From a virus, in the UHGV virus genome UHGV-0185643: 48,591 bases of DNA, one strand, 5' to 3'. A model generated the notes under the pieces. It made no database searches. It saw only the letters and a program-made list of their open reading frames with translations, and was not told the DNA's origin. The position numbers and the translations under genes are program-made. Shown here one piece after another: positions 1,063 to 40,906 of this stretch (position 1 is its first letter; each line of letters begins with the position of its first letter).

Positions 1063-1452
1063 TCACATCACTGGGCAGTCATCAAACTCCGCGTTCCTGG
1101 CATCATTAATGATGTACGTGATAACACCAAATATTGCGTGTGAAGAATTATAGCCATCACCGTCTTCTGGCAGCACTTCTCTTCTCCCGTTCTCCAGATT
1201 TATCAGGTGGGGCTGAGGGTGAGTTCGGTATCGCTTGATCCTGAATTCCCCATCTATCGCGCATATCAGCAGCGAGCCATCACAGGCTGAAAGCGACGCG
1301 TCCACAACAAGTAGTGCCCCCTGGATTATCCCTTCCCTGAAATGTGAACACGATGCCCGCATGAAATAAGTCGCTGCGGGCTGGCTGATTAGCTGTTGAT
1401 CGAGGGAAATCCTTGTTTCAACGTAATCACTGGCAGGTGAAGGGAAGCCCAT
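1063..1452 (-). CDS. UmuD'/HumD-like S24 peptidase-fold protein starting directly at the GFPSPA motif (no N-terminal arm, no cleavage site)
   Basis: Translation MGFPSPASDYVE...DGEFRIKRY aligns by eye to UmuD from its post-cleavage residue; longer ORF 1063..1551 trimmed to the internal Met because the upstream ORF stops at 1455; no umuC follows. Confidence 0.7.
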   Translation of the reverse strand: MGFPSPASDYVETRISLDQQLISQPAATYFMRASCSHFREGIIQGALLVVDASLSACDGSLLICAIDGEFRIKRYRTHPQPHLINLENGRREVLPEDGDGYNSSHAIFGVITYIINDARNAEFDDCPVM

Positions 1453-1454
1453 GG

Positions 1455-1694
1455 CTATAGTCCTCCGTTTGGATTGAAAAGCTGAAAGGTACGGTTCTCC
1501 CCTTCCTGCGTTGATACATCGCGGAATGATGTCACATACCACTCGATCCATTCGTTAGCCTGCTTCATCGTCCAGTTCCAGTTAACCTTGCTCAGTTCCT
1601 GGACAAACCGCTGTGTGGTGACGGTCTTCCGGCCATTAGGTTCTTGCTGTATCGAAGCATGCCAGGCCATTTCAATATCGCTGCGTCGTGGCAT
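1455..1694 (-). CDS. Hypothetical small protein (79 aa) immediately upstream of, and probably co-transcribed with, the UmuD'-like gene
   Basis: ORF with ATG at 1694 preceded by GAGGGG Shine-Dalgarno at 7-nt spacing; stop 3 nt before the UmuD'-like start. Confidence 0.45.
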   Translation of the reverse strand: MPRRSDIEMAWHASIQQEPNGRKTVTTQRFVQELSKVNWNWTMKQANEWIEWYVTSFRDVSTQEGENRTFQLFNPNGGL

Positions 1695-1736
1695 CAATTA
1701 ACCCCTCTTGAATACCGGATAAAAACACAGTATAAA

Positions 1737-1756
1737 TACTGTATATCCATCCAGTA
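1737..1756. promoter_or_regulatory. Candidate LexA (SOS) box TACTGTATATCCATCCAGTA in the divergent promoter region between the small-ORF/UmuD'-like operon and the DinI-family gene
   Basis: CTGT-N8-CCAG with flanking TA/TA, the same variant I recall for the E. coli dinI operator; lies 17 bp upstream of the 1773 start codon. Confidence 0.6.
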
Positions 1757-1772
1757 AAGATGACTACAAGAA

Positions 1773-2015
1773 ATGTTCGTGGAACTCGTTTATGACAAAA
1801 GGAATTTTGATGGGCTGCCTGGTGCAAAAGATATCATTCTGGGCGAATTGACCAAGAGGGTTCACCGGATCTTCCCCGATGCTGATGTTCGGGTTAAACC
1901 GATGATGACACTGCCGGCGATCAACACTGACGCCAGCAAGCATGAGAAGGAACAGATAAGCCGTACTGTTCAGGAAATGTTTGAAGAAGCTGATATGTGG
2001 CTGGTTTCAGATTAA
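1773..2015 (+). CDS. DinI-family protein (80 aa)
   Basis: Length and C-terminal motif EKEQISRTVQEMFEEADMWLVSD resemble DinI (…QRISEILQETWESADDWF…); preceded by an SOS-box-like site. Confidence 0.65.
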   Translation: MFVELVYDKRNFDGLPGAKDIILGELTKRVHRIFPDADVRVKPMMTLPAINTDASKHEKEQISRTVQEMFEEADMWLVSD

Positions 2016-11011: not shown

Positions 11012-12625
11012 ATGAATATTGTGCATTATGCAGCCATTGGAGCTGTAGCTTTCGTAGTTGTTCTAACAATTTTGGTGATAAACATCATTAAATTAAAGTC
11101 AGCCAAGGCTGATGCAGCAGAAAAGGCGGCAAAACTTGAGCGTTACGCGTCAATCACCAATGCTGAAACAGAAGCTGAACGAATCGTGAATGCAGCTAAG
11201 CAAACCGCAGAAGAGTTAATTATTGATTCGCAGAATAACCTTGACGAGGCAAAAGCTGAAGCAGCCAACACTATTGCAGCCAGTGAAAAAGATGCAAGAT
11301 CTATAACACAGCGTGCGGAGGATATTCTATCAGATGCGCGTTTAGCAGCTAAGCGAATGAACGCAGAGGCGCTGACCGCTGTAGAAACACAAAGAGTCAA
11401 GCGTGCAGAAATTGAAAAACAGATTGATGAATTGCGTAAATCCTATCGTGAGAAAAAAATCACTTACGATGAGCTGACGGAAGCCCTGTCAATTTATAAA
11501 GATGATATGGAATTTGCTGACATGGGGTTCTATGCACCACACTTCGATTTTGATACCTCGGCTAGTTTTCAGGATGCGATCAAGGCATGTCGCGAACGGC
11601 AAAAAAATCTGCTACGTGACAAAACTGAATTTGGCGCAATACATTGCCCTACTGAATGGACGGTTGGCGGCTCTAAAAGTGAAGGTCGGAAAATGACCAC
11701 TCGCGGCATTCAGATGACAGCACGTGCATTCAATGGTGAGTGTGATGCAGCTATTGCAAACTGCACATTTAAAAACGTTTATCAAATGGAGCAAAGAATT
11801 TATAAAGCCTTTGATGCCTTGAATAAGATGAATGAGGTTAACCAGATTTACATCAATCGTGCTTTTTTAGATTTGAAGCTGGATGAACTTCGACTTACAC
11901 ATGAATATCGTTTGAAAAAACAAGAAGAACGAGAAGAACAACGTGAAATCCGCGCTCAGATGGCTGAGGAGAAGCGAGCTCAAGCCGAAATTGATCGTGC
12001 ACTTCGAGAGGCTGAAGATGAAGAACGCCGCGCCCAAAAAGCGTTGGATAAAGCCCGAAAAGAAATGGAATCGAAGCTAGCCCAAATGACAGCTGAGCAA
12101 GTTGAGAAACACCAAGCGAAGGTATCCGAATTAGAACATGCCTTAGAAGAGGCATTGTTGAAAGGCCAAAAAGCTCTTTCTATGGCTCAACAAACTAAAC
12201 GCGGCCACGTGTACGTTATCTCTAATATTGGTTCGTTTGGTGATGATGTTTTTAAAATAGGAATGACACGTCGACTTGACCCTCAAGATCGAGTGGATGA
12301 ACTGGGTAGTGCATCAGTCCCATTCCTGTTCGATGTTCATGCAATGATTTTCAGTGAAGATGCACCAACAATGGAAAACATGCTCCACCAGCGTTTCAAT
12401 GAGCAACGCACTAACCTAGTTAATAAGCGTAAAGAGTTTTTCAATGTAAAATTAAGCGATATCAAAGATGCTGTGTTTGAGATCGCAGGTAAAGATGTAG
12501 ATTTTATCGAAACAGCAACTGCTCAGCATTATTATGAAACAAAGGCAATTCGTAAGCAGAAAGCGGATATCATTTCAGTTGTTCCTCAAGAGGAAAAACT
12601 ACCTAAATTTGCGGACGCAATATAA
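11012..12625 (+). CDS. Membrane-anchored coiled-coil protein (537 aa) with C-terminal T5orf172/GIY-YIG-like (MUG113-type) domain; candidate defence or exclusion effector
   Basis: N-terminal hydrophobic helix IGAVAFVVVLTILVINII; long charged heptad-like segments; C-terminal GHVYVISNIGSFGDDVFKIGMTRRLDPQDRVDEL...EFFNV motif; AGGGA RBS; transcribed against the tail operon; AT-rich. Confidence 0.6.
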   Translation: MNIVHYAAIGAVAFVVVLTILVINIIKLKSAKADAAEKAAKLERYASITNAETEAERIVNAAKQTAEELIIDSQNNLDEAKAEAANTIAASEKDARSITQRAEDILSDARLAAKRMNAEALTAVETQRVKRAEIEKQIDELRKSYREKKITYDELTEALSIYKDDMEFADMGFYAPHFDFDTSASFQDAIKACRERQKNLLRDKTEFGAIHCPTEWTVGGSKSEGRKMTTRGIQMTARAFNGECDAAIANCTFKNVYQMEQRIYKAFDALNKMNEVNQIYINRAFLDLKLDELRLTHEYRLKKQEEREEQREIRAQMAEEKRAQAEIDRALREAEDEERRAQKALDKARKEMESKLAQMTAEQVEKHQAKVSELEHALEEALLKGQKALSMAQQTKRGHVYVISNIGSFGDDVFKIGMTRRLDPQDRVDELGSASVPFLFDVHAMIFSEDAPTMENMLHQRFNEQRTNLVNKRKEFFNVKLSDIKDAVFEIAGKDVDFIETATAQHYYETKAIRKQKADIISVVPQEEKLPKFADAI

Positions 12626-31943: not shown

Positions 31944-32633
31944 TCAGTTCGGTTTTGCAAGACTTACATCCAAATTTGTCGCCTTTTGTTGTGAACGTGA
32001 TCGCGAAACAGAAAGGAGCGCCTGATTATCAAGGTGCACGAATTCTTGTTTCATCGCCAGCCAGTGCGGGAGGTAGGTTTCAGTCCAAGTTGGCTTTGAT
32101 ACCCCTACCAGTTGCGCCAGCTGCTGGTACTCGTATGTGCTGCGCCCTGCTAGTTCTGCTTTCACATCCTGAGCAGCAAGCCAAATTAACGCCTTCAACC
32201 GTTCGATGGTTTTACCAGCTATCTTTCGAGACCCCATCTGCGACTTGAATTCAGCCCACGCCCACTGAGTAATCAACACCTGACTCTCCCAGCTTACGTT
32301 CTCGCTGTAGTTCCACAGTAGCCAGGCCTTCTGGGGTTCTTCAAGTGACATCAGCGCCCGGCGCCACGATGCGGTGTAGAATTCTACCGGCTGCACCAGG
32401 GGAATATGTGAACCCTTGGCATGCGACTGTTTGCCCGGTATTGGTGGGTTATCCAGCGTAATCATTTTCCCGGTCACTTCATCATACACACGGAGCTTCT
32501 TACGTTTAAACGTTCCCGTATCAAACTGGGCGTTCTCAAGCCACGCCATCAACTGCCCTTTCGTCGCACCACTTAAATCGGCGGTGGCCACCATCAGCTG
32601 CTGGCGCACGTATTCGAGAAATTGAGTGTTCAT
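31944..32633 (-). CDS. Putative late-gene antiterminator (Q-like by position)
   Basis: 229 aa ORF between the nin genes and the lysis cassette; no Zn-finger cysteines, so family assignment is uncertain. Confidence 0.45.
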   Translation of the reverse strand: MNTQFLEYVRQQLMVATADLSGATKGQLMAWLENAQFDTGTFKRKKLRVYDEVTGKMITLDNPPIPGKQSHAKGSHIPLVQPVEFYTASWRRALMSLEEPQKAWLLWNYSENVSWESQVLITQWAWAEFKSQMGSRKIAGKTIERLKALIWLAAQDVKAELAGRSTYEYQQLAQLVGVSKPTWTETYLPHWLAMKQEFVHLDNQALLSVSRSRSQQKATNLDVSLAKPN

Positions 32634-33416: not shown

Positions 33417-34049
33417 CTAGGCTTTTTGACGACGCTTACTCAGCGCATTCGCTCTGCGGGAAAAAATTGACTTCATTCTCTTCAGGTAGTGGATGTCGAA
33501 CCGGCGCGGCTCGTTGTCGGATTCAAGGCGCTCGACACGTTCCAGGCCAATGCGTTCAATCAGGCGAATGCGATACTCAACGGTATTTCCGCTTAATTGG
33601 CGGTTGCACCGTGTACAGGCTGAATGAACGTTAAAGACGTTGAATTTGAGATGTGACGCAGCACCGCGCGAACGGTAATGACTGGCATCGATGGCACTAC
33701 CAGTCAGATAGTTGCTTTTGCCAATGAGCGGATTGCCGCAACTGACACGGTCTTTCCCCTCATCACGAATCCTGATGTACCGATTGAAAGCGGACTGAGC
33801 CTCTTTATCCCACTGGGATTTAGTCTTCAATGACTCGCGCACCCTCTGGCGACGTTGGCGTTCTTTTTTCTCGGCTGCGCGCTTTTTGGCAGACTCCTTG
33901 CGTTGTGCCGCCTCCCTGACCTTTCTGGTCTGCTCTTTTCCAACCGCGCTAGCGCACTCATAACCGCAGACAGTCTGCGTATCGCGAACAGGATGGAACC
34001 ACTGGCGGCATTCTTTGTTGGCGCACTTCCGGCGCGGTAACTTAGCCAT
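33417..34049 (-). CDS. ninG: NinG / Rap-like recombination protein
   Basis: MAKLPRRKCANKECRQWFHP... and downstream Cys/His motifs match lambda NinG by eye. Confidence 0.75.
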   Translation of the reverse strand: MAKLPRRKCANKECRQWFHPVRDTQTVCGYECASAVGKEQTRKVREAAQRKESAKKRAAEKKERQRRQRVRESLKTKSQWDKEAQSAFNRYIRIRDEGKDRVSCGNPLIGKSNYLTGSAIDASHYRSRGAASHLKFNVFNVHSACTRCNRQLSGNTVEYRIRLIERIGLERVERLESDNEPRRFDIHYLKRMKSIFSRRANALSKRRQKA

Positions 34050-34051
34050 AA

Positions 34052-34258
34052 TCACCCCCAGACCTTTTGCCGAAAGGTTCTTGGTGTACGCGCCGGATGC
34101 TCGCATTCAGGTAATTTTGCGCTAACAGTCCAGGTGATATTGTCGCGATTCAGGCTGCGTTCTACCGTGGCGCCGCGGCGTCGGTAACAGGCAATAAGTT
34201 CGTCGGCCTGCTCGGTTGTGCATTCGTGATGGTGGAACCAGGAAAATTTCATCGCCAT
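34052..34258 (-). CDS. Hypothetical nin-region protein (68 aa)
   Basis: ATGA-coupled to the upstream gene. Confidence 0.4.
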   Translation of the reverse strand: MAMKFSWFHHHECTTEQADELIACYRRRGATVERSLNRDNITWTVSAKLPECEHPARTPRTFRQKVWG

Positions 34259-34860
34259 CACCCCGCAAAACTCATAAGCTGCGCAGCGGCGTTTTCCGCT
34301 TCTCGCTGAGTCTTGAATGCCCGGGACAATACCCAGCGCCACAGAACATCGAGCGCGGCTTTGTAAAGTTGCTGGAACTCGGTTTCGTCCATGTTGGCGA
34401 AAGCTATGCTGCGGGGGTGTTTACGAAGAGTTCCGTCAGGTAGTTGAATTGCGTCGTAGTGGCCGGCCTCGACAATTACCCAGGCACGGTACGCGTCAAA
34501 GGATTTACACAGGCTGATCCCATTGGTAACTCGGCGACTGGCTACCTGCTCCAGATACTGCTCGGCAGCATCCAGCAGTGCGCCTTCGTTTCCACCAAAT
34601 GCCGCGAGGAATTTAGCATAACCATTTACGAGCTTACGCTCATTGCTGGATATCGCCCCTCCAGTAGGTTCCCAGTATTCAAACCCGAGATTCAGGAGCG
34701 CAAAAAAACGGCGATGGAATGCGGGATTCCTCACCTGGCGAAATTCGGCTACCAGCACGGCACCGAGTTTGATTTTTGATTGCAGAATATCGCTGGTCTC
34801 CGGCGTCGCGGGGATCAGGATTCCTGATGACTGCTTGATGAGTTGTAGTTCGTGCGCCAT
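34258..34860 (-). CDS. Nin-region protein of unknown function (200 aa)
   Basis: ORF in the nin region; family not assignable by eye. Confidence 0.5.
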   Translation of the reverse strand: MAHELQLIKQSSGILIPATPETSDILQSKIKLGAVLVAEFRQVRNPAFHRRFFALLNLGFEYWEPTGGAISSNERKLVNGYAKFLAAFGGNEGALLDAAEQYLEQVASRRVTNGISLCKSFDAYRAWVIVEAGHYDAIQLPDGTLRKHPRSIAFANMDETEFQQLYKAALDVLWRWVLSRAFKTQREAENAAAQLMSFAG

Positions 34861-34942
34861 GGTATTCCCCGTGGCGCATAATTGTCAGGTTACTGGTTGT
34901 TCAGGCCAGTGACAGAATTATGATTGGGTACGTAGCATTAAG

Positions 34943-35164
34943 TCAATTTTTAGAAGTCATCTCCCTTACAACTTCCATGATGGTTTCTTTGGACCAGTAC
35001 AATTCATCTCTGGATAATTTTCTGTTAGTTACAGAACCGGCCTTGGCTGAAAGGATGTAGCGTTCATCCGCTGCAAGTCCGAAAGACAAAAGCTCCCGAC
35101 CTTTCCCATCGGTTATGATCACCCGTAAATTATCAGCAAGATCTGATTGGGCTATATCTGCCAC
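34943..35164 (-). CDS. Hypothetical protein (73 aa)
   Basis: ORF only. Confidence 0.35.
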   Translation of the reverse strand: MADIAQSDLADNLRVIITDGKGRELLSFGLAADERYILSAKAGSVTNRKLSRDELYWSKETIMEVVREMTSKN

Positions 35165-35273
35165 TTAATCCCCCTGAGCGACATACAGACGCGATTAAAG
35201 AATGTCGGCAGCAGCATCAAAGGGATACACATTTTGGTATTCTGATAAATGCGCGCCAGCCTTAAGCGCAATT

Positions 35274-35507
35274 CTAATAAAACCAGTCGTCAGCGCTTTC
35301 CCAGGTATCCTGGAGGATTGATTCAATTTTCTTTTTATCGTCCTTGTCACCGCCAAAAACACTTAACCCATCCGACCCGGCACGGCGGATTGTGAGCCTG
35401 CAATTGTCATAGTGATCATTCAGGCGCTTAAGCAATTCTTTCTCCAGTGCAGGAACCGCGCCTTTAGGAAGTTCTTTCATACGATCAATGGTTAATTCAA
35501 CTTTCAT
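35274..35507 (-). CDS. DinI-family protein (second paralogue)
   Basis: MKVELTIDR...KKKIESILQDTWESADDWFY closely resembles the DinI C-terminus; perfect LexA box upstream. Confidence 0.75.
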   Translation of the reverse strand: MKVELTIDRMKELPKGAVPALEKELLKRLNDHYDNCRLTIRRAGSDGLSVFGGDKDDKKKIESILQDTWESADDWFY

Positions 35508-35525
35508 AATGGCCTCCAATGCATA

Positions 35526-35545
35526 TACTGTGTTTTTATACAGTA
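35526..35545. promoter_or_regulatory. LexA (SOS) box TACTGTGTTTTTATACAGTA upstream of the DinI-like gene
   Basis: Perfect CTGT-N8-ACAG palindrome with TA flanks, 19 bp upstream of the start codon. Confidence 0.7.
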
Positions 35546-35814
35546 TACCTATGAGAGGAAATGATCAACGTTTTAAGAGCACAAATTGTTAATTTCCTGT
35601 CAGGAATAAAAAAAGAAAACCCGCCGTAGCGGGTTGAATTCGTGATGGTTTATAAAGATGTAATTTCTTTCTACTGACAAATCTATGGCTACCCATTTAC
35701 CCTCAAACGTGAATACAGCATACGCGCCGACATACTGATTATCTCTTTGTGGATCGGGATATGATCAACCTTCTGCCAGAACGTAAAACTTGATGCCGCT
35801 GACAAATAAACAGC

Positions 35815-36075
35815 TCATTGTTTCTTCTCGTTCTGGGCTGCCATATCCAGATAGCGCGGGTCGGATGCTCTCGGTAATGTCAGACTTTGCTCGCGATAGT
35901 AGCGCACACGCTCCATGAAGTATTCGCGGAGATGCTCTGGCTGATCACGGGCTTCCTGTTCAGCGATAACCGGCATGTTCAGGCGCTCTTTGTCCGCTAC
36001 TCCGGATGCTGCAAAGTCAACGTTAACCTTGTCCTGCTCTTCTTTCGGCTTGGCTGCAATGTTATGGTTGGACAT
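35815..36075 (-). CDS. Hypothetical protein (86 aa)
   Basis: ORF only. Confidence 0.4.
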   Translation of the reverse strand: MSNHNIAAKPKEEQDKVNVDFAASGVADKERLNMPVIAEQEARDQPEHLREYFMERVRYYREQSLTLPRASDPRYLDMAAQNEKKQ

Positions 36076-36165
36076 GGTAATCTCACCGGTTAGCTGAGGG
36101 AACGATTCTCCTCAACTTGATCATTCAATCTGATTTGTAATCTTCCGAAATTTGAAATAACATCT

Positions 36166-36570
36166 TTACTTTAATTTATATATTAAACAATCCACAATAT
36201 CCAAACCATTAACCATACTATTTGAAAGTCGAACTTTGCTATTTTCAATAGAGAATGCTCCTTTCATCATTTTATAAATAAAAGCAGACTCTCCTTTAGC
36301 TTCGATTGCTTCAAGTGGTATGGAATGGTATTTATTTGATCTATTATCTCTATTGATTTGACTTATAAGGCTATAAACGAATGTAGGCCCTTTCTCCTCA
36401 AGATCACTTATTACCAAAATATATTTCCAAGAAAACATTTCCCCATAAAAAAACCACATGGCAGCGGATAAAGCTACTCCTTTCTTCTCTAACTCTTTCA
36501 TTAGAAATTGGCCAGAATTTTCCATAGAGGTCGTCATTGAGTGACCTATTACCAGTGACTTCTTACCCAT
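36166..36570 (-). CDS. Hypothetical protein (134 aa), downstream partner of the HEPN-like gene in an AT-rich cassette
   Basis: ORF overlapping the upstream gene by 22 nt; strongly AT-rich; no recognised motif. Confidence 0.45.
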   Translation of the reverse strand: MGKKSLVIGHSMTTSMENSGQFLMKELEKKGVALSAAMWFFYGEMFSWKYILVISDLEEKGPTFVYSLISQINRDNRSNKYHSIPLEAIEAKGESAFIYKMMKGAFSIENSKVRLSNSMVNGLDIVDCLIYKLK

Positions 36571-36971
36571 TGCAAAACTCCAGATTGATTATTCTCAGCT
36601 GCTTCGATGAGCTGCTCCGCCATAGCCCGACTGATAGTAGTTTCGTAGCGGAGTTGTTCACTCCAATCCTTCATAACAGTCCAAAATATTTCAAACTGCC
36701 CATCCTGGGCAGCTAATTGTCTATGTGATAGTTGTAGGCTCGCCACCTGCATGAGCTTTGTTAGATCATGAACATGTGAGTCCATGGCTAACTTCTTGTC
36801 AGGAAATTGAAATGCCGTCACATTTTTTGCTATACATGCTTTAAGAGCGCACTCAACTGCGTATCCGCAGAGGTAGTATGCACCATGATATAATCCATTC
36901 TGTAACAGACATTTTGCTTCCGTTAACCTTATACCAGTTAAAACTTCTAGGTCAGATTTATTCATTTGCAA
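36549..36971 (-). CDS. HEPN-like alpha-helical protein (140 aa)
   Basis: N-terminal helix pattern AKCLLQNGLYHGAYYLCGYAVECALKACIAK resembles the HEPN signature; downstream SHVH; AT-rich. Confidence 0.5.
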   Translation of the reverse strand: MQMNKSDLEVLTGIRLTEAKCLLQNGLYHGAYYLCGYAVECALKACIAKNVTAFQFPDKKLAMDSHVHDLTKLMQVASLQLSHRQLAAQDGQFEIFWTVMKDWSEQLRYETTISRAMAEQLIEAAENNQSGVLQWVRSHW

Positions 36972-37083: not shown

Positions 37084-37536
37084 CTAAATGATGTGAAGGC
37101 GCGGCTCCCCGTTTTTCGGCTCAGGCCACTGACGCTGCTTATTCACCGCCAACTTTTCTACCATCGCCTGGTTAATCTGCTCGTCACTGATACCGGCACG
37201 ACGTTGCGCATCCCATAACAGGAATTGCATGTCAGCCCATTCGCTAAGGTCGCCTGGTTCAGCAGCAGCCTCGAGTGCTTCTTTGGAAAGGTGCTTCAGC
37301 GGACCAACTGGACCGACATCGCCGAAAGTAGCCAGTGACCACGCTGCATGTTCACGGCGTACTTGTTCGCGGGCCATCGACTCCAGAACCCCATTAAACA
37401 CCTTCACAGCATCAGCCATTGCGTAGCCGAGATTGCCGCCGTCGCTTTGTGCTGCTGCTTTGCTGAGTATTTCTCTTATCTGGTGCAGGCGATTGAGTGA
37501 TACAGGACCGTTCGCCGGGTGGTTGTTAGTGGTCAT
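37084..37536 (-). CDS. DUF550/MazG-like nucleotide pyrophosphohydrolase-domain protein (putative)
   Basis: Start trimmed to the internal Met MTTNNHP (ATGA-coupled to the upstream gene); family assigned from recall, unverified. Confidence 0.4.
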   Translation of the reverse strand: MTTNNHPANGPVSLNRLHQIREILSKAAAQSDGGNLGYAMADAVKVFNGVLESMAREQVRREHAAWSLATFGDVGPVGPLKHLSKEALEAAAEPGDLSEWADMQFLLWDAQRRAGISDEQINQAMVEKLAVNKQRQWPEPKNGEPRLHII

Positions 37537-37844
37537 ACTGATGCTCTCCCGTAAAATGCCAGAACCCGCTTCATCGCCGGACTTGTACGGCATACTGAAG
37601 TAACCATGTTTTTTCTCATGTTCGATTTGATCTGCTTGATATTCAGTTCCCCGCCTAGTTGCAGCGAATAGACCGGGTGATGTGGCTCCCCAGCGCGAAT
37701 AACTACTGCCCTACGTACCAGGTGAAGCAGCAGGTTGTGTGCTTTCTTGCAGTCGCATCCCAGCAGGTTCTGAACCTGACGCGGGGTTATGGTCTGGTTA
37801 ACCCGAAGGAAATCGACAATTGCCCACAGTGATTTGCTTGCCAT
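37533..37844 (-). CDS. Hypothetical protein (103 aa)
   Basis: ORF between the DnaC-like and DUF550-like genes. Confidence 0.4.
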   Translation of the reverse strand: MASKSLWAIVDFLRVNQTITPRQVQNLLGCDCKKAHNLLLHLVRRAVVIRAGEPHHPVYSLQLGGELNIKQIKSNMRKNMVTSVCRTSPAMKRVLAFYGRASV

Positions 37845-37862: not shown

Positions 37863-38612
37863 TTATTTAACGATCCGGAGATGGCTAACGTTCTTGCGAT
37901 AGCTGCCCCAGTCAAAGTTCACCCACATCCCGCCATCCATCTGGAGGCGATCGATAACCCGCGCACCCAACGCGCCGAGAAGTTCGTCGTGGTTCAGATT
38001 CGTCAGAACGCCAACCGGGCGCATTGATGACAGCCGACGGTCAATAACCTGATTCAGAATGACTTTCTCCCCGTTGCTACCGCGCTGAATACCGACTTCA
38101 TCCAGCACCAGCAGATCGACTTTGCAGAGGTCATCCAAAAGTGAAGCCTCGGATTGACCACCGTCGTAGCACTCGCGAACGCGCAGCATCAGATCAGGGA
38201 TTGTCACCACCAACACAGATTGCCCACCGGACAGGAGATGATTCCCGATTGCCGCTGCCAGATGGTTTTTCCCGGTACCAGGACCGCCACTGAATACAAA
38301 ACTCGCAAAGCCGGCTCCAAAGTTCTGCGCGTAGCTCTTTGCCATGGTATAGGCCTTGCGCTGTTGCTCCCCGGACACTTCGTAGTTGGCGAACGTGCAG
38401 CTGCGGTGCAGGCTTTGAATTCCTGAGCGGCCGAAGATTTTCTCTGTGCGCGCTTTCTGATTCAGCTTGTCCAACTCTTCGCAATGTTTCAGGCCTTCTT
38501 CCCGCTGCCACGCCAGCAGCTCTGCTGCGCTGGTGAACTTCGGCTGAACGCCTGGCGGAATGAGTTTTTTCAGGCGCTCAAGAGCGCTGCCGGAATTAAC
38601 AATGTTTTTCAC
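37863..38612 (-). CDS. DnaC-like replicative helicase loader (IstB-type AAA+ ATPase)
   Basis: Walker A GGPGTGKNHLAAAIG and Walker B LLVLDEVG. Confidence 0.8.
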   Translation of the reverse strand: MKNIVNSGSALERLKKLIPPGVQPKFTSAAELLAWQREEGLKHCEELDKLNQKARTEKIFGRSGIQSLHRSCTFANYEVSGEQQRKAYTMAKSYAQNFGAGFASFVFSGGPGTGKNHLAAAIGNHLLSGGQSVLVVTIPDLMLRVRECYDGGQSEASLLDDLCKVDLLVLDEVGIQRGSNGEKVILNQVIDRRLSSMRPVGVLTNLNHDELLGALGARVIDRLQMDGGMWVNFDWGSYRKNVSHLRIVK

Positions 38613-38614
38613 CG

Positions 38615-39559
38615 TTACCCCCTGAATCCGGTTGGGATGGTTTTATCTGGCTCGGAAATGCGGTTCACATCCCTCCCCGTTTTGCGGTCGTTGAGAGCGA
38701 ACTTCGGTTTGAACAGTCCCTGGTATCCGTTGGCGATACTGGTGTTGATCACATCAACCGGGTCATGCCCTTCGTCCAGGCAAGCCTTGAGCAACTTGAA
38801 AGCTTTGGTGACCGTCATTTCGGTCTTGATGGCTTTGCCAGACTGTTGGCGGTAGGCAACCCACTCATTCCAGGACACAGAATCAAGCCACTCAGGAACG
38901 GGAATCGTCAACGGGTCAAACTTACCCCTCCCCTTTGGGGGATTAGAGGGGGTTAGATCTGTATTTATATTTGTATTTGGAAGAATGTCTTTGGTGTTCC
39001 CTGTTTTCAGGGATACCTCTCCCTGTTTTTGGGGATGGTTATCCCCGTTTTCAGGGATGGTTGAATGGGTAAAATTGCTATCCCTGAATTCGGGGATGGT
39101 AATTACCCATGTAACAACTTCAGCAGCAGGAAACACCGCTGGACACTTCATGCAATTTGGCTTGGTATACGCCCATTTATCCAGGCTGGTATTAATCCCT
39201 ATGTATCTGGTTTGCCCAATGCGGCGCAGGATGATGATGTTCCGATAGGCAAGGCTCAACACGGCCTCAGAGACGTGCTTCACCTTCAGCGTCGTTTTAT
39301 CTGCAATGAGGCTATTGGCGATGCGGTCAGAACTCTTAGACCAGCCATAGGTCAGACGAACGATAGCATTCAGCACCCGAAACTCACGCCCGGATAGTTC
39401 GACGATACACAGGGCATCCTGAATCTGGTTGGCCAGGCGCAAATAGCCTTTCTCCAGATCAGCCATGCTGCTCTCCTGTTTCCCCTGCTGTGTGGGGAAT
39501 TTGAATATTTCAGCGGTATTTGACATACTGTTCCCCGCAATCACTTTCCGTTTTTGCAC
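38615..39559 (-). CDS. Replication initiator (lambda O-like) containing the origin iterons
   Basis: Position upstream of the DnaC-like gene; embedded iterons and AT-rich segment as in the lambda O/ori arrangement. Confidence 0.7.
   Translation of the reverse strand: MQKRKVIAGNSMSNTAEIFKFPTQQGKQESSMADLEKGYLRLANQIQDALCIVELSGREFRVLNAIVRLTYGWSKSSDRIANSLIADKTTLKVKHVSEAVLSLAYRNIIILRRIGQTRYIGINTSLDKWAYTKPNCMKCPAVFPAAEVVTWVITIPEFRDSNFTHSTIPENGDNHPQKQGEVSLKTGNTKDILPNTNINTDLTPSNPPKGRGKFDPLTIPVPEWLDSVSWNEWVAYRQQSGKAIKTEMTVTKAFKLLKACLDEGHDPVDVINTSIANGYQGLFKPKFALNDRKTGRDVNRISEPDKTIPTGFRG
38998..39099. repeat. Origin iterons: four 18-20 bp units each with internal dyad (tCCCTGttttCAGGGa type), followed at 38945-38990 by an AT-rich segment
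   Basis: Units at about 38998-39015, 39020-39038, 39041-39060 and 39079-39099; closely resembles lambda ori iterons (TCCCTCaaaacGAGGGA). Confidence 0.75.
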
Positions 39560-39610: not shown

Positions 39611-40150
39611 TCATACAACCCCCAGCATCAACTGCACCATCTCCATCAGCGGACCGGTTAAGCCAGGGTCAACGCGGTACATCTCCACGATCCCCTCGCT
39701 CAGCTCTTTCAGCTTCTGATGACGCGGCGCATCCATTGCGACAGCTATCTTCGCTTCGCTGGTTTCCTTCTCCATACGTGCCAGGCGAGCCATGATGTTG
39801 TCTTCTGGCAGCAGGCGGTTGCGGTATTCAATCGGCAGAACTGCGAGGATTGCGGGAGTCAGCTGGCGAACGTTCTCGCGGTACCGCTCGCTGTTGAAAT
39901 GGTTATCGAGGAAGCGGAAAAGCTTCTGGCGCTTTCGGCAGAGATCATCAGGGAAAGTGATGTCGTCACCACCCTGCGCCTGGTACTCTTCGATGATCAG
40001 AGCAGTAACTACGTCCTGACCATCAGCACCAGCCCAGGAGCGAACCGCATCACGAATATCTTCGTGGCTCGGCCCCCTGCGTGCTTGAGCGCGATTTATC
40101 ATTACCCCTTGAGTAATATCGCTATCATTCTGATAAGTAAGTGTCTGCAT
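39611..40150 (-). CDS. YdaT-like regulator (CII functional analogue of Rac-type prophages)
   Basis: Segment RQLTPAILAVLPIEYRNRL resembles Rac YdaT (…IPAILAILPRELRHRL…); position after the Cro-like gene. Confidence 0.55.
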   Translation of the reverse strand: MQTLTYQNDSDITQGVMINRAQARRGPSHEDIRDAVRSWAGADGQDVVTALIIEEYQAQGGDDITFPDDLCRKRQKLFRFLDNHFNSERYRENVRQLTPAILAVLPIEYRNRLLPEDNIMARLARMEKETSEAKIAVAMDAPRHQKLKELSEGIVEMYRVDPGLTGPLMEMVQLMLGVV

Positions 40151-40161
40151 GATTAAGCCTC

Positions 40162-40380
40162 CTAACGTGGCAAACCATCTGTTGGGTTTGGGTAAATATC
40201 ACTACGGACCTCATGCGGAGTGATTTTCCAATCGAGTAAACGGCAAATTGGAAGCACGCGGTGCGCAGGAACCTCGTGGTTTAACCAAAGGCTGACCGCT
40301 TGAGACGTAGTGCCAAGATTTTTCGCTATTTCTGTTTGCGTCATAACCGCACAAACACGTTGTTTAATGGAATTTGTCAT
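40162..40380 (-). CDS. Cro/YdaS-like HTH regulator
   Basis: HTH TQTEIAKNLGTTSQAVSLWLN; divergent from the repressor gene; start trimmed to MTNSIKQ. Confidence 0.65.
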   Translation of the reverse strand: MTNSIKQRVCAVMTQTEIAKNLGTTSQAVSLWLNHEVPAHRVLPICRLLDWKITPHEVRSDIYPNPTDGLPR

Positions 40381-40486
40381 ATGCAACCCTCGGATATTGA
40401 AATTCAAGATTACAACATGAAAAAAATATTTTCAATCCTGAATGAAAATAATCTTTGCAATGCGGAATGAAAGGCTACCTTGTAGA

Positions 40487-40906
40487 ATGGAAGACATGAA
40501 AAAAGCACCCAACGAAGCGTTTGCCTACCGACTTCAGCTCGTCAGAGATGAGTTCGGTTGGAACATGTCAGATATAGCCCGGAGAGCGATGGTTACTCCC
40601 CAGGCAGTGCAGCAATGGGCCAAAGGAGAGTCAGCTCCAAGAGGTGAGCGCTTAAAGCGTCTCGCTGCAGCTGCTGGAAAGCCCGAACATTGGTTTTTCA
40701 TGCCACCAAATACCGAAGGTGAAGATGCTGGGGTGCATGAGCCACCGCGGCAACTGGATGAAAAAGAAATCGCACTGCTTACGTTGTTCAATCAAATGCC
40801 AGAAGCTGAAAAGCTACGTTTGATAGTGCATGCCAAGGCTACCTTGAGAGAGCTTGATCTCCTCAAAGATGATGTGTCTAGCATCATTCAAAGTATTCAG
40901 AAGTAA
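40487..40906 (+). CDS. Prophage repressor, XRE-type HTH, no S24 peptidase domain
   Basis: HTH MSDIARRAMVTPQAVQQWAKGE; about 140 aa; start uncertain (40442, 40487 or 40496). Confidence 0.6.
   Translation: MEDMKKAPNEAFAYRLQLVRDEFGWNMSDIARRAMVTPQAVQQWAKGESAPRGERLKRLAAAAGKPEHWFFMPPNTEGEDAGVHEPPRQLDEKEIALLTLFNQMPEAEKLRLIVHAKATLRELDLLKDDVSSIIQSIQK

Follow-up and report, generated by a model that had tools for sequence, protein, structure and literature searches.

A probable Gifsy-type SOS sensor operon with a GftA-like antirepressor gene in the nin region of a lambdoid prophage

The closest described counterparts of the locus analysed here are the SOS-controlled operons of the Gifsy prophages, in which a LexA box beside a dinI homologue, with a terminator ahead of the dinI promoter, controls dinI, an antirepressor gene (gftA, gfoA or gfhA) and irsA (Lemire, Figueroa-Bossi and Bossi 2011, PMC3121763). 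The same study found that the small GUG-initiated open reading frame (ORF) between dinI and irsA is sufficient for Gifsy induction, that its product binds the repressor, leading to its release from DNA, and that induction leaves GtgR and other Gifsy repressors uncleaved; the gene that follows the antirepressor was named there as an irsA homologue (PMC3121763). LexA binding and SOS inducibility have been demonstrated at these loci (PMC3121763, PMC8072944, PMC13090387), and Gifsy dinI homologues, with a box 19 bp from the ATG, were induced 4.6- to 23-fold by nalidixic acid (PMC8072944).

We compared these operons with a locus in a 48,591-nt stretch of viral DNA (UHGV virus genome UHGV-0185643; the whole stretch is referred to as the window), considering sequence anatomy, homologies, synteny and the co-occurrence of repressor and antirepressor types. 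A preliminary description had recognized at this locus a second DinI-family gene with an upstream LexA box, and had suggested that modulation of RecA by phage DinI proteins could feed into induction control. On the strength of its likeness to the Gifsy loci, the locus is very probably the module through which a lambdoid prophage of Gifsy type senses the SOS response, with a GftA-like antirepressor as the induction trigger. The elements of the putative operon and its control region, all on the minus strand, are as follows.

35608–35635, minus strand: intrinsic terminator AACCCGCTACGGCGGGTT plus T-run, called by a terminator scan and aligning with the Gifsy terminator
35542–35568, minus strand: putative sigma-70 promoter, −35 TTGATC at 35568–35563 and −10 TATACT at 35547–35542
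35526–35545, minus strand: putative LexA (SOS) box TACTGTATAAAAACACAGTA, core CTGT-N8-ACAG perfect, 17 of 20 positions matching the consensus
35274–35507, minus strand: dinI homologue of 77 aa, first gene of the operon, matching Pfam DinI and PDB 1GHH
35165–35273, minus strand: non-coding spacer (leader) of 109 nt, ending in the antirepressor Shine–Dalgarno sequence GGGGGA
34943–35164, minus strand: GftA-type antirepressor gene of 73 aa, GTG start, 75% identity to GftA
34258–34860, minus strand: irsA homologue (DUF1367), third gene of the operon, Pfam DUF1367 E = 1.5e-96

The perfect CTGT-N8-ACAG palindrome that had been placed about 19 bp upstream of the gene is indeed there: its core lies at 35528–35543, and the dinI ATG is 20 nt from the 16-mer and 18 nt from the 20-mer. 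Taken alone, the 16-mer pattern carries little weight, since 0.69 matches are expected per window; two were found, and two or more occurred in 15 of 100 shuffles. The 20-mer consensus TACTGTATATATATACAGTA, with up to three mismatches allowed, matched twice in the window (35526–35545 and 1737–1756) and not once in 100 shuffles, and both matches lie directly upstream of the window's two dinI-like genes. A looser scan, tolerating up to one core mismatch and up to six mismatches in 20, returned the same two sites alone. At the same position, Gifsy-1/2, mEp237, Citrobacter, Enterobacter and Leclercia all have a box that is identical to this one or nearly so. The −10 hexamer of the putative promoter overlaps the LexA box and stands 15 nt from the −35; a consensus promoter scan that required spacers of 16–18 nt did not call this promoter, which we infer from inspection by eye and from alignment to the Gifsy promoter region. 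Further upstream, the terminator has a 7-bp stem (35635–35608) with five GC pairs before its T-run, and by analogy with Gifsy it is predicted to insulate the SOS operon from upstream early transcription. Terminator, −35, −10/LexA box, Shine–Dalgarno sequence and ATG all align with Gifsy-1/2. We conclude that LexA control of the dinI operon is likely, the box being putative here and inducibility being known from the Gifsy loci.

The first gene lies in an open frame at 35274–35519 (minus strand), whose sensible start is the ATG at 35507, behind a Shine–Dalgarno GGAGG at 35517–35513; this gives 77 aa (MKVELTID...WESADDWFY). The protein matched Pfam DinI (PF06183) over profile positions 1–63 of 63 (E = 8e-26, 90.6 bits, against a cut-off of 24.2 bits), PHROG 189 'RecA filament binding protein DinI' (E = 1e-26) and E. 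coli DinI in the PDB (1GHH/7YWA, E = 2.8e-17). In the alignment to 1GHH/7YWA, ILQDTWESADDWF, the C-terminal acidic helix ILQ-TWESADDWF is kept; according to refs 27–28 within PMC3121763, this helix contacts RecA in E. coli DinI. The 77-aa protein thus reads as a single-domain member of the DinI family, and RecA-filament binding is predicted for it. It shares 66% identity with Gifsy DinI, 45% with E. coli DinI and 28% with a second DinI-like protein at the left end of the window, the features of which are these.

1773–2015, plus strand: left-end DinI-like paralogue of 80 aa, Pfam DinI E = 4e-21, matching PHROG 189 and PHROG 36550
1737–1756, plus strand: LexA-like box TACTGTATATCCATCCAGTA, three mismatches to the consensus

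The identity of 28% bears out the earlier view that the nin-region gene is a diverged paralogue of the left-end copy. Against the NCBIfam equivalog for chromosomal DinI (NF007893), the 77-aa protein scored 89.7 bits and the left-end copy 41.8, both short of the cut-off of 111, and by these scores the two would be paralogues rather than the chromosomal DinI orthologue. The claim that both genes are LexA-controlled stands in part. LexA-like boxes do precede both; the left-end box, however, is imperfect, with CCAG in its right half-site. Near the left-end dinI there is also a degenerate second box at 1713–1732, and the left-end box region is fully conserved in E. coli SC476. The left-end copy faces a HumD (UmuD′)-like gene, a pair that resembles an SOS or mutagenesis module.

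As the preliminary description had it, the second DinI-family gene lies in the nin region, between the replication genes (O at 38615–39559 and a DnaC-like gene at 37863–38612) and NinG/Q (33417–34106 and 31944–32633). Cargo comprising a pol III theta homologue, a HEPN pair and a dNTP pyrophosphohydrolase separates the replication genes from the operon. The succession of dinI (35274–35507), the GTG ORF (34943–35164) and the DUF1367 gene (34258–34860) reproduces the Gifsy operon arrangement, and the DUF1367 protein has 185 of 200 residues in common with Gifsy STM2620/STM1020. A terminator scan between dinI and the antirepressor gene found none; a weak 5-bp stem at 35112–35096, inside the antirepressor ORF, was disregarded as a terminator. 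When positions 34900–36100 were compared with phage records by megablast, Gifsy-1 and Gifsy-2 matched downstream of dinI, and mEp237 matched in dinI and the promoter region. E. coli prophages (mEp237) share 92% identity with the latter segment, and the antirepressor and irsA segment is closest to Gifsy; the region is therefore mosaic. Four other genomes, those of Citrobacter murliniae, two Enterobacter and Leclercia, show the same succession of box, dinI, antirepressor and irsA, and each has one perfect box 375–395 nt upstream of the antirepressor gene. C. murliniae is the closest genome found, with an antirepressor 95% identical to that of the window, and the host of the prophage is probably a Citrobacter.

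The identification of the trigger turns on the 73-aa GTG ORF. Along its entire length it shares 75% identity with the ORF of Gifsy-1/2 (LT2) that was defined as gftA (PMC3121763) and that the Gifsy annotation lists as a 73-aa 'hypothetical protein'; the Shine–Dalgarno sequence GGGGGA stands 4 nt ahead of the GTG in the window. The protein matched PHROG 4847 (E = 1.5e-38). It had no Pfam or NCBIfam model and no sequence similarity to any named family, and PDB sequence searches with both the antirepressor and the repressor returned no matches; we regard the assignment as settled because the 75% identity is to an experimentally defined protein. Homologues of the antirepressor were present in three of 50,697 phage records, namely Gifsy-2, LT2 Gifsy-1 and Klebsiella phage ST16-OXA48phi5.1, and it is these three records that match the window's repressor best. 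This co-occurrence is indirect evidence that the antirepressor type and the repressor type may travel together as a cognate pair. In the Klebsiella phage, dinI and a LexA box are both missing from the vicinity of the homologue, so not every member of this antirepressor protein family is under LexA control.

40442–40906, plus strand: GtgR/GftR-type (DicA-like) repressor, Pfam HTH_3 only

The likely true start of the repressor is the ATG at 40487, which gives 139 aa, as the gene caller does. It is 52% identical to Gifsy-2 GtgR over the whole length, including the C-terminal region, and 68% to the CI of the Klebsiella phage; in NCBIfam it has a DicA-like match below the cut-off. Divergent from it are a Cro-like gene (40162–40407) and a cII-like gene (39611–40150), and the dinI operon lies about 5 kb away, outside the immunity region. 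That this repressor has no autocleavage domain had been noted before, and we concur: HTH_3 was its only domain, and its Gifsy relative GtgR is of the non-cleaved kind. A six-frame tblastn search with approximate C-terminal sequences of LexA, UmuD and lambda CI as queries detected no cleavable S24 repressor in the window, whose sole S24 domain belongs to the HumD-like protein (1063–1551), which has no HTH.

On this anatomy, induction of the prophage would proceed as follows. In the lysogen, LexA would sit on the box, which overlaps the −10, so that the operon would be silent. DNA damage would activate RecA, LexA would cleave itself, and dinI, the antirepressor gene and irsA would be transcribed. 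The small GftA-like antirepressor would then accumulate, bind the non-cleavable GtgR-like repressor and strip it from its operators, and with the repressor removed the lytic programme would start. DinI, made from the same transcript, would most likely be an accessory that binds RecA filaments and not the trigger. LexA dependence, the sufficiency of the antirepressor, the repressor–antirepressor complex and the dispensability of dinI come from the Gifsy experiments, and we infer that these properties carry over to the window's pair, at 75% identity for the antirepressor and 52% for the repressor.

A further layer of control could in principle reside in the spacer between dinI and the antirepressor gene. 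In an alignment across five genera, about 90 nt at its core hardly vary; pairwise nucleotide identity averages 0.81 in the spacer against 0.75 in dinI, 0.76 in the antirepressor gene, 0.75 in irsA and 0.65 in the promoter, a modest excess over the flanking genes. A pattern drawn from 43 nt of the core occurs in at least 120 IMG/VR contigs. We counted boxes and GTG starts per spacer in 82 unique flanked IMG/VR copies: exactly one perfect LexA box lies about 327 nt upstream in 81 of them, and a small ORF with a GTG start follows in 81. The ORF that comes after the spacer exists as two very different alleles, the GftA type (69–73 aa) and the mEp237 gp49 type (82 aa). Among 62 unique IMG/VR loci selected by irsA, the spacer is present in 40 and absent from 22; these loci include a third small-ORF allele without the spacer, and some are without dinI or the box. 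The stretch just upstream of irsA is conserved too.

We asked what the spacer might encode or form. Coding readings fail: in relatives, 1-nt and 2-nt indels and a stop codon break the forward ORF of 39 aa as well as the antisense ones. Rfam at gathering thresholds matched nothing in the whole window, and at relaxed thresholds over 35050–35700 it gave chance-level matches only (E above 1), none of them in the spacer. The single-sequence fold of the spacer is not unusual (z = −0.85). RNAalifold proposes a long hairpin in which AUCCCUUUGA pairs with the antirepressor Shine–Dalgarno sequence; its covariation term is 0.02, and the changes in the hairpin are one-sided U-G/U-A only. A tentative and rather unlikely proposition is that the spacer, which stands ahead of two different antirepressor alleles in at least five enterobacterial genera, is a cis-acting RNA gate, in which the hairpin and the GUG start would keep antirepressor translation below the induction threshold until SOS transcription is strong or sustained, and in which DinI translation or another factor might open the hairpin. 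With such a gate, if real, SOS-dependent prophage induction would have a second checkpoint, at the post-transcriptional level, and dinI would have a role in cis, one that non-polar deletions would not reveal. Alternatively, the spacer could be a recombination linker, one of two conserved linkers flanking a swappable antirepressor cassette.

A rival idea is that DinI itself governs induction. Here the phage DinI proteins would modulate RecA filaments, damp or prolong LexA cleavage and thereby set the threshold or timing of antirepressor expression, as a feedback within the operon. Conservation of the RecA-contacting acidic helix with E. coli DinI speaks for such a role, as does the presence in one prophage of two DinI paralogues associated with LexA boxes. 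However, in C. murliniae a CAG-to-TAG nonsense change at Q66 removes the RecA-binding helix from DinI while the adjoining antirepressor, 95% identical to that of the window, is intact; some relatives have the antirepressor gene and irsA without dinI; and non-polar dinI deletions in Gifsy-1 and Gifsy-3 left induction unchanged. We therefore consider DinI–RecA modulation improbable as the induction control that the preliminary description, having overlooked the GftA-like ORF at 34943–35164, had proposed. Lemire et al. took the conservation of dinI and irsA to suggest some regulatory role (PMC3121763), and DinI may have a subtle modulatory role.

Very unlikely, in our judgement, is that dinI and its LexA box form a stand-alone moron of benefit to the host, tuning SOS or mutagenesis and unrelated to prophage induction. 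The neighbouring cargo (theta homologue, HEPN pair and dNTP pyrophosphohydrolase) would fit such a reading, as would the resemblance of the left-end DinI/HumD pair to an SOS or mutagenesis module and the mosaic make-up of the region, in which dinI and the promoter are 92% E. coli-like and the antirepressor Gifsy-like. Against it, no terminator-like site splits dinI from the antirepressor gene, gene order and spacing match the operon that experiments showed to be required for Gifsy induction, and the window has no other SOS sensor in the form of a cleavable repressor.

We regard as extremely improbable the notion that the 73-aa ORF is not expressed or is no antirepressor and that the conserved spacer/ORF region acts as RNA: the GTG start, the lack of Pfam, NCBIfam or PDB matches and the unusually conserved upstream spacer would suit it, but a frameshift in Gifsy-2 gftA abolished activity (PMC3121763), which argues for the protein as the active product, mitomycin C leads to the accumulation of tagged GftA and GfoA (PMC3121763), the ORF has the strong Shine–Dalgarno sequence GGGGGA, and its substitutions relative to Gifsy (10, 9 and 27 at the first, second and third codon positions) have the third-position bias of coding sequence.

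The reading that we favour, a LexA-repressed GftA-like antirepressor acting on a non-cleavable repressor, has consequences for annotation. The likely induction switch is an unannotated 73-aa GTG ORF and not DinI, and the family of that ORF carries the label 'unknown function' in PHROGs; prophages of this kind would be mis-scored as having no SOS-responsive switch if only cleavable CI were sought. The Gifsy-type repressor/antirepressor pair is extended to a Citrobacter-like host, and the antirepressor slot behaves as a swappable cassette between conserved flanks. The type of system has been described before, and its current understanding is not overturned; what is gained is a corrected mechanism for this prophage and the identification of its antirepressor.

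Set beside known systems, the locus has the same parts in the same order as dinI–gftA–irsA of Gifsy-2 and LT2 Gifsy-1 (PMC3121763). Common to both are a terminator, a LexA box that precedes the dinI ATG by about 19–20 nt, dinI itself, some 110 nt of spacer, a 73-aa antirepressor starting with GTG, irsA/DUF1367 and then NinG, together with a short, HTH-only repressor. They have diverged to 66% identity in DinI, 75% in the antirepressor and 52% in the repressor; the spacer within the window's LexA box is the reverse complement of the Gifsy one, the window's dinI and promoter resemble those of E. coli phage mEp237 (92%) more than the Gifsy ones, and the theta homologue, HEPN pair and dNTP pyrophosphohydrolase are extra relative to Gifsy. 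The dinI–gfoA/gfhA loci of Gifsy-1 and Gifsy-3 (ATCC14028) and gp48–gp49–gp50 of mEp237 have the same operon architecture and LexA box. In mEp237 the box is identical and dinI with its leader is 92% identical to the window, whereas the antirepressor slot there, as in Gifsy-1 and Gifsy-3, holds a different, 82-aa allele (PHROG 340, against PHROG 4847 in the window); the mEp237 repressor is annotated as resembling the 14028S regulator.

More distant systems have parts of the same design. Tum of phage 186 (also of Fels-2 and PSP3) and AntC of N15 follow the same logic, in which a LexA-repressed antirepressor inactivates a non-cleavable repressor, and a DinI-like moiety is associated with the antirepressor in Tum/AntC-type systems (PMC3121763, discussion). 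Tum is one fused polypeptide with the antirepressor N-terminal and DinI C-terminal, whereas in the window the two are separate ORFs, dinI first, 109 nt apart; the PHROG 189 profile has 151 positions, of which the window's DinI covers 71–148, fitting a Tum-like fusion in the profile. Chromosomal E. coli DinI (1GHH, 7YWA) belongs to the same fold family, carries the C-terminal acidic helix and has a LexA box of the same kind upstream; it is monocistronic, whereas the window's DinI, 45% identical to it, is phage-borne and heads an operon. Self-cleaving repressors of the lambda CI/LexA type also give SOS-dependent induction; the window's repressor is without the S24 domain, and RecA, unlike in the case of lambda CI, would act on it indirectly through LexA. 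As judged by its sequence, the locus is set apart from lambda CI-type switches and from Tum-type fusions, and with every sequence-testable feature of a Gifsy-type operon found in it, it would belong with the Gifsy operons.

Between dinI and the antirepressor gene of the nin-region operon lies an intergenic segment that recurs across relatives of the prophage:

35165-35273, minus strand, conserved non-coding leader of the antirepressor gene, downstream of dinI

This leader is common to two different antirepressor alleles in the window and the IMG/VR relatives that carry its core (L013-L132), and in 81 of 82 unique relatives a GTG start stands at its end. The leader may fold into a putative hairpin that sequesters the Shine-Dalgarno sequence; we found no covariation backing this hairpin. 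The antirepressor family itself is poorly served by databases. GftA, the Gifsy antirepressor, belongs to a family that has been experimentally characterised and is without a model in either Pfam or NCBIfam. PHROG 4847, which matches the window's antirepressor (34943-35164), carries the PHROGs label 'unknown function', and GenBank records enter the GftA-type antirepressor as hypothetical. We conclude that the missing GftA-family models and labels are an annotation gap.

In Citrobacter murliniae (CP163158.1), dinI (2160-2394 of locus L003) is broken by a nonsense change at Q66 (CAG to TAG) and also carries a 3-nt deletion; the adjoining antirepressor shows no such damage, is intact, and shares 95% identity with that of the window. 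The closest homologue of the window repressor is that of Klebsiella phage ST16-OXA48phi5.1 (68%), which contains the following gene:

1387-1680 of locus L012 (Klebsiella phage ST16-OXA48phi5.1), GftA-like protein of 97 aa with an N-terminal extension, upstream of irsA

Neither dinI nor a LexA box was detected within 1.5 kb of this gene, and the antirepressor of this phage is presumably under different control.

The early and tail regions of the window contain several further genes:

35815-36075, minus strand, HolE-like DNA polymerase III theta-subunit homologue (Pfam E=4e-31)
36166-36570, minus strand, 134-aa partner overlapping the HEPN gene
36549-36971, minus strand, HEPN-domain protein
37084-37593, minus strand, dATP/dGTP pyrophosphohydrolase (PF04447), early region
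11012-12625, plus strand, gene for a 537-aa protein that combines a DUF4041 domain with a T5orf172/MUG113 (GIY-YIG-like) one

The HolE-like gene, which scores 95.1 bits in NCBIfam against a cut-off of 97, lies directly upstream of the terminator and recalls Hot of phage P1, likewise a HolE-like theta homologue. A family search with the 134-aa protein gave no match, and together with its HEPN neighbour it resembles a cargo pair of the toxin-antitoxin or defence kind. The 537-aa gene, which sits on the opposite strand within the minus-strand tail-gene block, probably represents a moron or has a role in defence.

At the left end of the window, genes are arranged as a divergent pair (1063-2015):

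1063-1551, minus strand, HumD/UmuD'-like protein (NCBIfam HumD equivalog, 222 bits; cut-off 120)
1455-1697, minus strand, 80-aa ORF (PHROG 3893, unknown function)
1713-1732, degenerate LexA-like box, 4 nt from the next
1737-1756, LexA-like box
1773-2015, DinI-like gene facing the minus-strand HumD-like gene and 80-aa ORF

Both boxes fall in the 75-nt intergenic region. The left-end region of E. coli SC476 is identical to the window's, and the S24 gene is frameshifted in the SC476 copy. Every one of the 5,426 complete genomes of E. coli has a match to part of the query 850-2100 (80–90% identity), so some segment of the left end has an equivalent in the core genome or in a near-universal prophage. 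Among the papers of the library searched, none joins HumD, DinI and prophage.

The degenerate box shares a stretch of 14 nt, ATAAAAACACAGTA, without mismatch with one half of the LexA box in the nin region. The latter (35528-35543) has the 8-nt spacer ATAAAAAC in operon orientation. In the Gifsy loci the spacer is GTTTATAT, which nearly matches the reverse complement of the window's (GTTTTTAT). The flanks of the box align directly, as if the palindrome centre had been flipped between the window and Gifsy; both spacer versions occur among the IMG/VR relatives.
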